A stretch of 19,113 nucleotides of DNA from Candidatus Thorarchaeota archaeon (lineage in GTDB: Archaea > Asgardarchaeota > Thorarchaeia > Thorarchaeales > Thorarchaeaceae): contig JBHIAE010000053.1 in assembly GCA_046758445.1 (NCBI GenBank), positions 1 through 19,113 of the forward strand, given 5' to 3'. The notes under the pieces were generated by a model. It was given only the letters and a program-made list of their open reading frames with translations, searched no databases and had not been told where the DNA came from. This document shows positions 3,821-19,113 of this stretch, one piece after another; positions within the stretch are counted from its first letter, which is position 1; every line of letters begins with the position of its first letter. The position numbers and the translations under genes were made by a program.

Positions 3821-4915
3821 ATGCAGGACACGGGGACAGCCAATGGAAAGCTGAACAAAGCACGCCCGAGAATCACGCTCACACATTTCGCGAAAGTCAG
3901 CAACCCAAGGTCAATACACGGCATATACCCATACAGAGGGAAGATGTCCTCTCTCGATGCAGCCCATGTAATCTCGCAGGTCCCGGCTGATGCCATTCTC
4001 TTGGACCCCTTCTGCGGAACTGGGACAATCGTGTACGAAGCACAGGCTAGAGGCGTGCGTGCCATAGGTGTAGACAACAATCCCCTTGCGTGTGTCATCG
4101 CACGTGGAAAGACTGAACCTTTAGACGTAGCAGAAACGCTAGAGCATCTTGAACAAGCCGCTCTAGCGGCGGAGAGCCTAAGTAGCCCACCAGACATGCC
4201 AGCCTCTCCCGCACGGTATTATCACCCTGAAACAGCCGAGCAGATAATGCGTATGATTGCGGTGTCAGAGGACTTCTCATCCTATGAGCTATCTGCTCTC
4301 TATGGTTCCATTTGTGTTGCAGCGAGGGCCTGCAATGGCTGGACGTGGACTTCCACGTCGATAGGGAGAATAGCCGATTCACTGCGGCCCGTTGACTTCT
4401 ACAAGACGTTAAAGCGAAAGGCGAAGAAACACATCTCTTACGTCAGGGGGCGACCCAAAGCGAAGATCCACCGATATGATACTCGCCGCATCTTTGAGAT
4501 AATCCCTGAGAAGTCGATTGATGTAGTGTACTGTAGCCCTCCTTACTTCGATGCGCTAGACTACACTGGCTACTACACCAAGCTTGTACTAGAAGTCCTA
4601 GGTGAGAGTCGAGCTCGCATAAGAGAGGGCCTCATTCAGAGATTCTCAACCTATAGGGATGACATCAAGTCAGCATTACACGCCGTCGATAGGGTCGTAA
4701 AGGATGATGCTCTCGTTATATTCGTCGTTGGAGACCGAATGGTTCATAGGAAGCTCATCAGGGGGTCGGAATTCTTCGCCGAGATAGCCCCTTGGGAAGG
4801 CTCCTATGTCGTTGAGAGATCGTATTCCGACACCCCAAGCAGGCTGTGGGACAGAATCAACAAGACACAACGAAAAGAACAGGTCATGGTATGGGATCTT
4901 GGCAGTCGAGGATGA
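3821..4915 (+). CDS. Amino (probably N4-cytosine) DNA methyltransferase, alpha-type motif order
   Basis: H.IYPYRGK, then motif I LLDPFCGTGT near the N-terminus, then motif IV CSPPY after a long variable region. Confidence 0.8.
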   Translation: MQDTGTANGKLNKARPRITLTHFAKVSNPRSIHGIYPYRGKMSSLDAAHVISQVPADAILLDPFCGTGTIVYEAQARGVRAIGVDNNPLACVIARGKTEPLDVAETLEHLEQAALAAESLSSPPDMPASPARYYHPETAEQIMRMIAVSEDFSSYELSALYGSICVAARACNGWTWTSTSIGRIADSLRPVDFYKTLKRKAKKHISYVRGRPKAKIHRYDTRRIFEIIPEKSIDVVYCSPPYFDALDYTGYYTKLVLEVLGESRARIREGLIQRFSTYRDDIKSALHAVDRVVKDDALVIFVVGDRMVHRKLIRGSEFFAEIAPWEGSYVVERSYSDTPSRLWDRINKTQRKEQVMVWDLGSRG

Positions 4916-4919
4916 TTGA

Positions 4920-5765
4920 ATGAAGACCAACCATTTAGTGGTAATTGGAGACAGCCGGAAACTGGACCGCGTCTCGGATTCATCTGTTCACCTTGTTGTG
5001 ACTTCCCCACCTTATTGGCGTCTCAAGGACTACGGCGAGGATGTAGGAATAGGTCAGAGTTCAGTATCCTACGATGAGTATATGGCAGATATCTGCTCAG
5101 TGTTCAAAGAATGTGTGAGGACGCTTGTTCCGGACGGCAAACTGATTGTAAACATAATGCCGATTCTTCTAAGCGGAAAGACGTCAAAGTTCAACCGTAG
5201 AGTCACAAAGACAGTCTTGACCGAACTAGAGGGATTCATGACATTACTAGACGACATGTACTTCCACTCGCTCTATATCTGGGACAAAAGGAAGGCCGTT
5301 CGTTTCAGTTCCTGGGGTTCGTATCCCTATCCTCCGAACATCCTTTCGTCATACCCCTATGAATGGATCATCGTATTCTCCAAGAAGGGAAGACATCCAC
5401 CTGTTGACTCAAAGGTCAAAGAAGCCTCCAAGATCAGTCACGAGGAATTTACCAATTGGGCTCAGAACTCAATCTGGGAGTTTCAACCAGCTTCAGCAAA
5501 GGCCGAGGGGCATCCGGCTCCCTTTCCAGAAGAGTTACCACGAAGATGCATTCGGCTCTACTCCTTCCTGGGTGACACGGTTCTTGACCCGTTTGCAGGG
5601 ACAGGCACTACCCTGGCGGCGGCAAGAAGACTTGGCCGCAATTCGATCGGATATGAGATCAATCCAGAATTTGAGAAGCTAATCCGTGCAAAGCTAGGGG
5701 TGGGTGAGGACTGGAACGACGAAGCTACCTTCGAAGTGGCTGTGCGTAGCACTAAATCTAAATAA
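4920..5765 (+). CDS. Amino (N4C/N6A) DNA methyltransferase, beta-type motif order
   Basis: Motif IV VTSPPY is N-terminal; HPAPFPEELP and motif I VLDPFAGTGTT...GYEIN are C-terminal. Confidence 0.9.
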   Translation: MKTNHLVVIGDSRKLDRVSDSSVHLVVTSPPYWRLKDYGEDVGIGQSSVSYDEYMADICSVFKECVRTLVPDGKLIVNIMPILLSGKTSKFNRRVTKTVLTELEGFMTLLDDMYFHSLYIWDKRKAVRFSSWGSYPYPPNILSSYPYEWIIVFSKKGRHPPVDSKVKEASKISHEEFTNWAQNSIWEFQPASAKAEGHPAPFPEELPRRCIRLYSFLGDTVLDPFAGTGTTLAAARRLGRNSIGYEINPEFEKLIRAKLGVGEDWNDEATFEVAVRSTKSK

Positions 5766-15833: not shown

Positions 15834-16194
15834 ATCCCTGTGTCCTGTATGGACGATTTAAGCCCGTTAGAGGAGGCCATCTTGAGAGGAAGCCCCACGA
15901 TTGCCACGTACTCATGGAAGCCGCTCCCCCATGACGCTCCGCTCTGAGGACTGGCGGGGCCTGACTCTCTGAGTCTAGTATGTTCAATTTGTTCACGTTG
16001 CCCCTGAAAGGCTCACCTTCCAGATAGAAGGATAGAATAAGGGTAGGTGTCGAGGGGAAGGTAGGGTTACATTCCCCTGAACATACAAGCGTCTGGTAAG
16101 AGAGCGATTTACCGGGCGTTAGATTGTAGGTTGCTAAGCCTCCTAAGGTTACAGTTTCAGGGGAAGGTAAGGTGAACGTACCGAGGGAACGCGC

Positions 16195-16419
16195 TCATTC
16201 CTCTTCGTCGTCTGCAACGATAAACCAGAGCAGGTCTTTGGCAATCACAAATCCGCCCACCCTGTAGGGTTCCTCACTATCAGTCATTATCTCCTCCATG
16301 AGCCTCTTGGGTGGGGTCGTAAGGAACTGTGGCTCTCCATCTCTGCGTGTCCGCTTGGTGATCTTCAGTTGATAGATGCGTGTGCACTTTGGATGCCTCG
16401 GCAGTCTAATCACTCTCAA
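16195..16419 (-). CDS. Small protein, possibly AbrB/SpoVT-like DNA-binding (copy A)
   Basis: Paralog of 18411-18635 with mostly synonymous or conservative changes. TTG start after GGGTGA RBS. KITKRTRRDGEPQFLTTPPKRLMEEI resembles the AbrB beta-hairpin/T-x-PK helix pattern. Confidence 0.7.
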   Translation of the reverse strand: MRVIRLPRHPKCTRIYQLKITKRTRRDGEPQFLTTPPKRLMEEIMTDSEEPYRVGGFVIAKDLLWFIVADDEEE

Positions 16420-16447
16420 CGTCTATCACCCACGCCTAGAGATGAAG

Positions 16448-16741
16448 TTACTGGATGACTCTGTGTACTGCGATTCTCTCTGTAAGGGAACTCATGGCCT
16501 CGCTGAACATGAACTCAAGGTGAGCGAGAGCATCATCGATCACAGCATAGTCCTCATCAGTCGAAGGTCCTTCTCATGCCGACTGAAAATCTACACGCGT
16601 GAACTCTCTGAGGGCAAACATACTATGAGTCCTCCCGCGCTCACCATATGGAACGTCATCGCTGTGATAGTTCCTCTCGATTGTCCACCGCTGGTTGAAC
16701 AGCTGCACGTCAACCACGGTGTCTAGGTCGTCCGGCTTCAT
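16448..16741 (-). pseudogene. ORF1 copy A with in-frame TGA at a Trp codon
   Basis: Colinear with 18666-18959. TGA at 16574-16576 aligns with TGG, and the frame continues EGPSTDEDYAVIDDALAHLEFMFSEAMSSLTERIAVHRVIQ to TAA 16448-50. Confidence 0.75.
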
Positions 16742-16774
16742 GTCATCGTGTGCCCCAAGGTCCAATTTGAGCCC

Positions 16775-16811
16775 ACATTATTACTAGTAATAGTGTATGA
16801 GTATATAAGCT
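16775..16811 (-). promoter_or_regulatory. TATA box (TTATATA) plus palindromic operator-like site over the expected start site, copy A
   Basis: The minus strand reads AGCTTATATA, followed by the perfect 14-bp palindrome TATTACTAGTAATA. Both are conserved in copy B. Confidence 0.65.
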
Positions 16812-16863
16812 TCCATGAAAAACCGCAGGCAGCCACAGGACCAAAGGTCCAGCTGCGTCGGAA

Positions 16864-17940
16864 CTATCCAGCGCATAGAGGACTGGTAGCTAGCTTCTCC
16901 AACCTCTTATACTTTCTCTTCACTAGGCCCTCGTCCGCGAACCTGTAGGGCTCTCGCTTCTTCAGCATGTGGAAGCATGCCACAGCGAGCTCCCTTGCAA
17001 CTGCCACGTAGGCCTTGGACTTCCCTCGCCTCTCGCTTATCCTCCTGAACTTCTTCTGGAAGTGGTCATCGTACCTCACAGCTGAGTGTGCCACCTGAAC
17101 CAAGGCCCATCTGACTCTAGGAGATCCCATCTTGGTGATGGCTCCATGATAGCACTTCTCCCCGCTCTGACTGACCCTCGGTGCAAGACCAAGCCAGCTC
17201 ACGAGCTTGCTAGAAGACGGGAATCTGTCAATGTCACCAATCTCACTGACAAACAGCATGGCAACGTAGTAGTCGATTCCGGGAATGGTCATCAGCAGCC
17301 TGATTCTCTCGTCCTCCACTGCCTTTTGCGCGATGACCCTCTCCACATCCTCTACAAGTCCAGTCAGGGCCTTCAGCTGATTTAGATAGGTCTGGAGAAT
17401 GAAGCGCTCTGCCTCTGGCAGCTCAAGTCCATTCAACCATCTGACACCAGCCTTTCCCCACAGTGTGCTCCCCGGATATCTGGGGCAATCACACCTTTCA
17501 AGGAGAGCATGGGTCCGGTTCTTGACTCTCACCCTATCTCTGACCAGGTTCATCCTGACACGAGTCAGCTCACGGACATCTCTCACATTTACAGGGGGCA
17601 CATAGCACGGGGCCACGAGGTCTGCCCTCAACAGGTCAGCAAGCATTGCAGCATCGACCTTGTCGCTCTTCAGCCTGGCCTCAGCGATCGCCTTGGTCTT
17701 CGATGGATTGGAGAGGATGACCTCAACACCACTCTCCTCCAGAGTCAGGAACAGCCTGAGCCACAGATTCCCAGTGCTCTCGATCACTGCCTTGGTCGGT
17801 CTTGCTCCAATGGCCCTGAGAAGTCTGGTGAACCCCTGGTCGGTGTTGAGAAACCTGAACTCCTCAAGAAGGACTCCCCTCTTGTCCTTGATACAGGCAT
17901 AACAGAACTTCTTGTGCACGTCGATTCCAATGTAGATCAA
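16864..17940 (-). CDS. IS110-family DEDD transposase/recombinase
   Basis: DEDD tetrad (YIGIDVHK, IESTG, KSDKVDA), L.TIPGI HhH, and C-terminal GLAPRVSQSG with the catalytic Ser. TTG 17940 is preceded by RBS GAGGTGG; the ORF track start at 18000 runs into the ncRNA. Confidence 0.95.
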   Translation of the reverse strand: MIYIGIDVHKKFCYACIKDKRGVLLEEFRFLNTDQGFTRLLRAIGARPTKAVIESTGNLWLRLFLTLEESGVEVILSNPSKTKAIAEARLKSDKVDAAMLADLLRADLVAPCYVPPVNVRDVRELTRVRMNLVRDRVRVKNRTHALLERCDCPRYPGSTLWGKAGVRWLNGLELPEAERFILQTYLNQLKALTGLVEDVERVIAQKAVEDERIRLLMTIPGIDYYVAMLFVSEIGDIDRFPSSSKLVSWLGLAPRVSQSGEKCYHGAITKMGSPRVRWALVQVAHSAVRYDDHFQKKFRRISERRGKSKAYVAVARELAVACFHMLKKREPYRFADEGLVKRKYKRLEKLATSPLCAG

Positions 17941-17943
17941 TAT

Positions 17944-18106
17944 GACCACCTCATGCATCGGCTCTATGCGGCAGGCATCCATTCGCTCTTCAAAGAGCAT
18001 TTCGATAGCCGCTCTGTCTGGTCCAGTCTCCCCACGACCTCATACGGGTCAAGCTTAAAACCGGCCAGCCGATACATCTGTGGTCTTCTGTCAAATGCCC
18101 GTTAGA
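17944..18106 (-). ncRNA. Putative bridge RNA / seekRNA of the IS110 element
   Basis: A basal stem (18067-85 with 17944-63) encloses two stem/internal-loop/hairpin arms. The loop segments match the reconstructed target and donor sites. The ends are approximate. Confidence 0.75.
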
Positions 18107-18410
18107 GGTTTTTCATATCGTCTCCCCTCAAAAGACACGGGTTCCTCCTCAGGGAAGGGCCTGTGACGCGGTTAGGGGCGATTCCATCTTACAGCCCTCC
18201 GATGGCTTTACGGTAAGGTGGTCACTCAAAACATATGCTTCATTCTACAGGGGAGTGCCTGTCATACAGTAGTTGAAGTTGTTAACGTGGTCCACCGAGA
18301 AACACCCCTTCCAGATAGAGGGGTAGATTCCTTGGGGAAGGTAAGGGTACACTCCCCTGAACGCACAAGCGTCTAGTAATGGAGCGACCTGCGCGCGCAT
18401 GAGGGGATGC

Positions 18411-18635
18411 TCACTCCTCTTCTTCGTCCGCAACGATCAACCAGAGGAGGTCCTTGGCAATCACGAACCCGCCCACCCTGTAGGGCTCCTCAGTATCACT
18501 GATGATTTCCTCCATGAGCCTCTTGGGTGGAGTCGTGAGATACTGTGGCTCTCCATTTCTCCGCGTCCGCTTGGTGATCTTCAGTTGATAGATGCGTGTG
18601 CCCTTCGGATGCCTTGGCAGTCTGACCACTCTCAA
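18411..18635 (-). CDS. Small protein, possibly AbrB/SpoVT-like DNA-binding (copy B)
   Basis: 74 aa paralog of 16195-16419; TTG start with GGGTGA RBS. Confidence 0.7.
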   Translation of the reverse strand: MRVVRLPRHPKGTRIYQLKITKRTRRNGEPQYLTTPPKRLMEEIISDTEEPYRVGGFVIAKDLLWLIVADEEEE

Positions 18636-18665
18636 CGTCTATCACCCACACCCCTAGAGATGAAG

Positions 18666-18959
18666 TTACTGCCTGAGCCTATAGACTGTTATCCTCTCGG
18701 TCAGTGAACTCATGGCCTCACTGAACATGAACTCAAGGCGAACGAGTGCGTCATCGATCACAGAGTAGTCCTCATCGGTGGATGGACCCTCCCATGCAGA
18801 CTCGGTGTTGACACGGGTGAACTCTCTCAGGGCAAACATCCCATGGGTCCTCCCACGCTCGCCATAAGGGACGTCATCGCTGTGGTAGTTCCTCAGGATG
18901 GTCCACCGATGGTTGAACAGCTGCACGTCAATCACGGTGTCTAGGTCGTCCGGCGTCAT
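18666..18959 (-). CDS. Hypothetical acidic protein ORF1, 97 aa (copy B, intact)
   Basis: Paralog of 16448-16741 with many third-position differences. The ATG is conserved in both copies (an alternative TTG lies at 18983). Confidence 0.75.
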   Translation of the reverse strand: MTPDDLDTVIDVQLFNHRWTILRNYHSDDVPYGERGRTHGMFALREFTRVNTESAWEGPSTDEDYSVIDDALVRLEFMFSEAMSSLTERITVYRLRQ

Positions 18960-18993
18960 GCTATCGAGTCCCCCAAGGCCCAATTTAAGCCCG

Positions 18994-19029
18994 CACTATT
19001 ACTAGTAATAATGTATGAGTATATAAGCT
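18994..19029 (-). promoter_or_regulatory. TATA box plus palindromic operator-like site, copy B
   Basis: AGCTTATATA on the minus strand plus the TATTACTAGTAATA palindrome, as in copy A. Confidence 0.65.
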
Positions 19030-19113
19030 GCGGTCATCACACAGGGACATGTCCACGACCAGCCTCTTGCAGTGTGGTTATCAACAGTCCACACTGGCAT
19101 ACCCCAAGACCAT

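Follow-up and report, generated by a model that had tools for sequence, protein, structure and literature searches.

The window, by which we mean the whole stretch of 19,113 nucleotides analysed here, carries a gene for a DEDD/serine recombinase of 358 aa, read on the minus strand from a TTG codon or, alternatively, from a GTG at 17949 [Table 1]. Its product matches PF01548 (DEDD_Tnp_IS110, E = 2.4e-28) and then PF02371 (Transposase_20, E = 2.2e-25), both above the curated cut-offs, and phmmer against ISCro4/IS621 gave E-values of about 1e-12 to 1e-13. When aligned to ISCro4/IS621, all the catalytic residues were present, namely D7, E54, D93, and D96 of the RuvC-like domain and S259 of the Tnp domain; D7, E54, D93, and S259 are invariant in 25 homologues. 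The whole 358-aa ORF, with its two Pfam domains and five catalytic residues, agrees with an earlier note on this DNA, made from the letters alone, in which the recombinase was described as intact. A protein search returned about 1000 homologues; of the 120 that were listed, all those with a name belonged to archaeal MAGs. The best named relatives of the RNase PH encoded in the window are 80-82% identical and are labelled Hermod-, Thor-, and Promethearchaeota; the host is therefore an Asgard archaeon, as had been thought probable. Elsewhere in the window, two DNA methyltransferase genes (N6_N4_Mtase and D12-class matches) adjoin each other at 3821-5765, with no obvious restriction enzyme gene between the two.

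The recombinase gene lies within an insertion sequence whose element proper measures 1312 bp, extending over 18121..16810 or 18123..16812 depending on how the core is counted. Read on the minus strand, the element starts at 18121 with ACGATATG (also given as ACGATATGAAAAACC...) and ends at 16810 with ...CATGGAAG (also given as ...GGTTTTTCATGGAAG). The ends ACGATATGAAAAACC... and ...GGTTTTTCATGGAAG are common to seven further copies or fragments, and the compared copies share the same ends; the differing ends that the earlier note had named as counter-evidence did not turn up. The flanks, on the other hand, are unrelated between copies; counting them as part of the element was considered and rejected because they are wholly different from copy to copy while the ends are constant. 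The subterminal inverted repeats, ATGAAAAACC and GGTTTTTCAT, are 10 bp long and 100% complementary (13 bp in the relative L025), and the left one begins 5 nt inside the element, or 7 nt if the core is counted.

The full target of the window element reads GAGGGGAGCTTATA. Its right half, CTTATATAC, looks like the TATA box of a downstream repeat unit, and conceivably ATATGAAAAA could serve as the TATA box with the junction supplying its upstream element. The window holds two paralogous repeat units (16001-16830 and 18292-19025, ∼83-89% identical), both of which start with the TATA-like CTTATATAC, and the element is located directly 5' of the TATA-like box of the second. The first repeat unit contains a 105-aa ORF (18666-18983) without a Pfam match; in the second, no minus-strand ORF reaches 80 aa. 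The left flank of the copies L006/L007 aligns with window positions 19113-19028, and both are inserted exactly at the homologous position.

Table 1. Positions of the insertion sequence, its putative RNA and guides, and its target within the window.
Feature	Position	Strand	Sequence, pairing, or basis
Unoccupied paralogous site	19019..19037	minus	...GATGACCGC-AG-CTTATATAC; homologous to the L006/L007 insertion site
Insertion sequence with both AG core copies	16810..18123	minus	constant ends across copies
Left target half	18124..18129	minus	GAGGGG; sequence
Left core copy	18122..18123	minus	AG (CT on the opposite strand); sequence
Left subterminal inverted repeat	18107..18116	minus	ATGAAAAACC; kept in relatives
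Putative bridge RNA core, 131 nt (basal stem and two guide arms)	17951..18081	minus	model R1, 140.5 bits
Basal stem, 5' strand	18067..18077	minus	ATGTATCGGCT; pairs with 17953-17963 (AGCCGATGCAT)
Target loop, 5' guide	18052..18060	minus	TTTTAAGCT; complements the top strand of core and right flank
Arm 1 distal hairpin	18035..18051	minus	TGACCCGTATGAGGTCG; helix 3, nearly invariant across lineages
Target loop, 3' guide with 2-nt extension AC	18026..18035	minus	GTGGGGAG + AC; equals left flank, core, and element positions 1-2
Donor loop, 5' guide	18003..18007	minus	TATCG; complements CGATA, element positions 2-6
Donor loop, 3' guide	17976..17982	minus	ATGGATG; 6/7 to right end and core ATGGAAG, mismatch in the core
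DEDD/serine recombinase gene, 358 aa	16864..17940	minus	TTG start 17940; stop codon 16864-16866
Right subterminal inverted repeat	16815..16824	minus	GGTTTTTCAT, then GGA, then core AG
Right core copy	16810..16811	minus	AG; sequence
Right target half	16801..16809	minus	CTTATATAC; sequence

The left end and the start codon are separated by 181 nt, for which the minimum-free-energy fold (-70.8 kcal/mol, z = -3.5, equalled by 0 of 200 shuffles) consists of a basal stem and two arms, each arm made of an internal loop and a distal hairpin. The basal stem (helix 1) is 11 bp long, pairing 18077-18067 with 17963-17953, and has two pairs changed on both sides. In a consensus structure over 12 sequences, 94.6% of the cells are paired, as against 28-41% with slid partners, and six pairs are changed on both sides, that is, compensatory. 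Both the minimum-free-energy fold and the consensus structure reproduce the basal stem with two arms that had been drawn from the single sequence. Two RNAalifold pairs inside loop 2 were left out of the structure, their positions falling in guide segments. We also observed a 9-nt complementarity between the RNA segment CGCATAGAG (17962-17970, between arm 2 and the basal stem) and the 3' end of tnp, CTCTATGCG (16872-16880); both motifs are nearly invariant across lineages.

With a covariance model of the window-type RNA (R1), the RNA was found in 22 further loci, each directly upstream of tnp. All of these are archaeal but one (a Dehalococcoidia MAG), and they belong to several phyla, with lineages including Methanosarcinales, Hydrothermarchaeales, Nitrosopumilaceae, Bathyarchaeia, Methanoperedenaceae, Methanoregula, and Thermoplasmata. 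R1 gave no match in the distant relatives from Salinigranum, Rhodococcus, and a Rhizobium plasmid (34-41% identity), and Rfam 15, searched at E up to 10, returned no relevant family, only two chance-level matches. A BLAST-level DNA search of 60 relatives' genomes recovered no copy beyond the window's own genome, and of the 150 other phylum genomes sampled, 5 had an R1 match, a patchy spread which fits a mobile element.

For a comparison of flanks and loops, the DNA around eight homologues was retrieved. The related elements have the same ends and the same RNA, their flanks differ, and their loops differ in step with the flanks. The four guide matches put forward in the earlier note were all found at their positions on the minus strand. 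In the target loop (loop 1), the right junction AG/CTTA (a slash marks the junction here and below) has its reverse complement in TAAGCT at 18057-18052, and the 5' guide agrees with its own flank AGCTTATA at 7/8 positions and with AGCTTAAA of copies L003/L005 at 8/8. On the other strand of the loop, GTGGGGAG at 18035-18028 agrees with the left flank GAGGGGAG at 7/8 positions and, extended as GGGGAGAC, with its own left junction GGGGAG/AC at 8/8.

Single matches of this kind are short, and the test against chance was therefore taken from other copies. The covariation set comprised 11 diverged lineages (four same-genome copies and seven metagenomic), in which own and other flanks were compared using one copy per lineage with the core positions left out. 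The left flank agreed with the loop-1 3' strand at 49 of 55 own positions as against 1.36 of 5 per non-own pair, a sum reached by 0 of 100,000 permutations. The right flank agreed with the reverse complement of the loop-1 5' strand at 41 of 45 own positions as against 1.78 of 5 per non-own pair, and this sum was reached by 2 of 100,000 permutations. Among the 22 further R1 loci, the arm-1 3' loop and the left junction share an exact word of at least 9 nt in 15. The left-junction match reads GGGGAG/AC in the window, TTGCTAAG/AC in L013, ATTTAAG/AT in L017, AATTAAG/AT in L019, GGTTAAG/AT in L024, AGTATTTG/AC in L032, and ACAGCTG/AC in L006, and the extension of the 3' guide (AC or AT) covaries with the start of the element (AC or AT). 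Likewise, the loop-1 5' strand matches core and right flank as TATCAAGCT in L013 (9/9), ACTTCACT in L024 (8/8), and GCTATACA in L032 (8/8). A collection of homologues in which to look for such covariation had been suggested in the earlier note; the loops do track their own flanks, and the view that the matches were unlikely to be due to chance now has the permutations across 11 lineages behind it.

The donor loop (loop 2) follows changes in the ends of its own element. Its 5' guide is the weakest of the four, being 5 nt long, mismatched in three lineages (L025, L032, and L035), and ending 1 nt short of the core. Its covariation is partial, with TATCA accompanying TGATA in L019-L024. The core is contained in three of the four guides of the RNA, the exception being this TATCG. 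As to the 3' guide, most relatives carry ATGGAAG, which equals the right end at 7/7 positions; L017 combines the donor guide ATAGAAG with the end CATAGAAG, and L032 combines ATGGATG with CATGGATG. In L032, TG replaces the core AG at both junctions and in each of the three guides that read the core, and L049 likewise has TG in these guides and junctions. A handshake of the donor loop was not evident: of 10 lineages, only 2 had a match between the 2 nt after the core and the right flank.

We consider, with a probability of about 0.9, that the locus is an apparently intact 1312-bp element of the IS110 superfamily and of IS1111 type in an Asgard archaeon, and that a Y-shaped bridge (seek) RNA, about 131 nt long, is encoded in its left end. 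That the RNA would act as a bridge/seek RNA with a target loop and a donor loop is supported by the natural covariation, which shows that the guides are real; the same proposal in the earlier note is borne out by this reprogramming across lineages. In loop 1, the 5' strand UUUUAAGCU complements the top strand of the core and right flank, and the 3' strand GGGGAG with AC complements the left flank and core on their bottom strand, reaching 2 nt into the element in a manner that resembles the handshake guide of IS621. In loop 2, the 5' strand UAUCG matches the left-end CGATA and the 3' strand AUGGAUG (AUGGAAG in relatives) the right end and core. By analogy with work on IS621 and ISEc11, the element would excise as a circle with its right and left ends joined at the core; in complex with the DEDD/serine recombinase, the RNA would hold this donor junction and a matching target together, and strand exchange would take place at the AG (CT) core with no target duplication. 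The element may be called programmable in so far as its relatives appear to have been reprogrammed in nature.

It is possible that the window copy was recently active. A less likely account, though one that we take seriously, accepts the RNA family and its mechanism and holds the window copy to be a decaying relic which no longer moves. The mismatch in the core of the donor loop (ATGGATG vs ATGGAAG) and the one mismatch in each target guide would speak for decay, but the mismatches are few, though none of those checked is a G-U wobble, and IS621 tolerates variation at one core position. In the own genome (113 contigs), seven further places match, 81-94% identical and none of them identical to the window copy; these are one full copy, L002 (G000 contig C2:27257-28562), and six fragments. 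In L002, which is the genome's one further full-length copy, a frameshift divides the transposase between two frames. This picture of diverged, partly broken copies does not suggest recent activity and also favours a relic; most copies, however, lie at contig ends, and collapsed identical copies could hide in an assembly of 113 contigs. An exact search of the metagenome contigs for the circle junction TTTTCATGGAAGACGATATGAAAA (...TTTTTCATGGA-AG-ACGATATGAAAA...) and for the empty site CTTTTGAGGGGAGCTTATATACTC (...TTTTGAGGGG-AG-CTTATATAC...) found neither, which would again suit a relic but says little because assemblies rarely keep such forms; in the own genome, the empty version of the window's site was absent at up to 3 mismatches. 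Against decay stand the whole ORF with all its catalytic residues kept, and the two ends and two inverted repeats, which are perfect.

Several other copies showed particularities of their own. The metagenomic copy L016 is truncated at its 5' end, so that arm 1 of the RNA is missing and arm 2 and the gene are kept. L025-L029, from five metagenomes, are near-identical elements with a common right flank (two DUF1670 genes) and four different left flanks, all of which end in TATTAG, equal to the 3' target guide; the pattern points either to guide-directed rearrangement of the left junction or to movement of a larger unit along with the element. In L017:2635-2660, L024:2372-2397, and L023:1309-1334 (two lineages), the last 13 nt (TTTTTCAT[G/A]GAAG) occur twice in tandem at the right end, and it is the flank beyond the second repeat that the loop-1 5' guide matches. 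The left junctions of L002 and L004 read AA, whereas their guides and right junction read AG, which looks like insertion into a target mismatched at one core position; the mismatch would fall on the first position of CT on the opposite strand, where IS621 tolerates variation too. In L059, a stretch of 17 bases, GAGGGTGACCGGCAGAC, is identical in the left flank and the RNA (∼980-1000 and 1075-1091) and extends from the guide into the stem of the distal hairpin.

The IS1111 and IS110 types are separable by their repeats and extensions, by the position of the non-coding region, and by the order of the guides (Siddiquee 2024, PMC11187229; Durrant 2024, PMC11208160). IS1111 elements usually have subterminal inverted repeats of 11-13 bp, perfect or nearly so, with extensions of 7 (or 6) and 3 bp; their long non-coding region lies downstream of tnp, upstream in "a few" members; and in their seekRNA the complement of the top strand stands 5' of the complement of the bottom strand (Siddiquee 2024, PMC11187229). 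It is improbable that the window element is of the IS110 type proper, like IS621 or ISEc21. The position of its RNA would fit, since 181 nt lie upstream of the gene and ∼53 nt downstream, and upstream of tnp is the usual place in the IS110 type; but the same arrangement occurs in those few IS1111 members with an upstream non-coding region, and the archaeal ISMac14 is listed in the IS1111 group with a left-end bridge RNA (Durrant 2024 Table S5, PMC11208160). Moreover, the element has a perfect 10-bp subterminal repeat with extensions of 7 and 3 nt (on the left AGACGAT, counting the core as Siddiquee 2024 does; on the right GGA), and the top-strand complement comes first among its guides, TAAGCT (complement of top-strand AGCTTA) preceding GGGGAG (top-strand sense). 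Two relatives, L073 (Altiarchaeales) and L065 (Nanoarchaeota), also argue against the IS110 type proper, having their R1 matches downstream of tnp, as is canonical for IS1111. The ends of L073, ACGATATGAAAACACC...GGTGTTTTCAT, are the same as in the window element, and its R1 match is weak (E = 0.079) and limited to arm 1, although a 3' guide there equals its own left flank; L065 is more diverged and has a full-length R1 match.

In a tree of 49 transposases, the window recombinase falls in a 13-member archaeal clade (95/86), all members of which have a left-end RNA. RNA position changes at least three times across this tree. The tree contains no IS110-type references and cannot separate IS1111 from IS110 for that reason; IS4321, IS5708, and ISPsy16 are placed on a long branch, and the backbone is without resolution. 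Structural criteria, rather than phylogeny, support the view that the element is of the IS1111 type. The same assignment in the earlier note holds by the 10-bp repeat, the 7/3-nt extensions, and the guide order, with the upstream RNA as the minority arrangement of the family. Finally, it is hardly credible that the structure is only a 5' leader which sequesters the ribosome-binding site, the flank matches being coincidental. The outer stem does have a 3' strand, GAGGTGGTC, that overlaps both the GTG/TTG start and the likely ribosome-binding site. In at least 11 lineages and a further 15 loci, however, the matches change with the flanks to an extent far exceeding chance. This covariation refutes a leader as the sole explanation, while a leader role could coexist with the guide role.

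A wider and more tentative reading, which in our judgement falls somewhat short of even odds, would join these observations. The window element might belong to a widespread, mostly archaeal IS1111-type clade (Asgard, Methanosarcinales, Bathyarchaeia, Nitrosopumilaceae, and others) whose bridge RNA gene was relocated to the left end. The RNA would be built like that of IS621, with the cassette flipped relative to a conserved CT core, such that the reversed guide order would reflect a flip in the polarity of the site rather than another mechanism. On this reading, the RNA module would have changed ends repeatedly (at least three times on the tree), and the members of the clade would be compact (358 aa and 131 nt), functional, programmable recombinases. 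If true, programmable recombinases would be native to the closest prokaryotic relatives of eukaryotes.

The mechanism (in bacteria), the presence of the family in archaea, and the upstream-RNA exception are already published, and the window element adds a well-supported example that leaves the known mechanism unchanged. In the literature searched, we found no detailed account of an archaeal bridge RNA; the present element offers a documented archaeal case for which target and donor are at hand, along with about 25 relatives reprogrammed in nature. According to published work, donor recognition in the IS1111 type is less clear than that of IS621. Because both of its loops are simple and readable, the clade could help to settle how the IS1111 donor is read and why the guide order is reversed. 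With a 358-aa recombinase and a 131-nt RNA, the element is also a compact candidate for testing. For annotation, exact element ends and an RNA model are gained for genes that are plain "IS110 family transposase" entries in many archaeal MAGs.

Among known systems is the ISMac14 group of Methanosarcina (ISMac14, ISMba7, ISMba20, and ISMma5), of which ISMac14 resembles the window element in being archaeal and listed as IS1111, in its left-end RNA, and in a GIDVHKK-like N-terminal motif. ISMac14 was compared by its table entry only, and the nearest Methanosarcinales relative compared by sequence was L049, at 59% identity. The IS1111 elements with seekRNAs (ISEc11, ISPa11, ISKpn4, and IS4321/IS5075; PMC11187229) share with it a DEDD/serine transposase, subterminal repeats that start with ATG and are flanked by a 7-nt left and a 3-nt right extension, the lack of a target duplication, the RNA segment complementary to the top strand coming first, and target specificities that differ between close relatives. 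Unlike them, the window element has its RNA upstream of tnp, a repeat of 10 bp, and an archaeal host, and both of its loops are plain internal loops carried by a single shared basal stem.

In IS621, the 5' guides carry top-strand sequence and end in the CT core, and the 3' guides carry the top-strand complement, ending in AG and two handshake bases which read the other DNA (Durrant 2024, PMC11208160; Hiraizumi 2024, PMC11208158). Like IS621/ISCro4 (PMC11208160, PMC11208158; PDB 8WT6, 9T56), the window element has a two-loop RNA upstream of the recombinase gene and a recombinase with the same five catalytic residues. The form of its guides is also that of IS621, the 5' guide being TAAG-CU and the 3' guide GGGG-AG-AC, with the 2-nt extension of the target loop reading into the donor. 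It differs in its long subterminal repeat and in its arms, which are closed by a common basal stem, whereas the loops of IS621 are described as separate consecutive modules after a 5' stem-loop. Its donor 5' guide is short and stops short of the core, and no donor-loop handshake was seen. The guides also read opposite flanks in the two elements; in the window, the 5' guide reads the flank downstream of tnp and the 3' guide the upstream flank, and the core is AG on the coding strand, compared with CT in IS621. No statement of a polarity flip as the account of the reversed guide order was found in the literature searched. Seen from the RNA, the core appears to be CT in both, with the genes of the window element and of IS621 on opposite strands. 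If gene orientation is flipped in this way against the CT core, that would account for the guide order which Siddiquee 2024 found to be reversed in IS1111-type elements.
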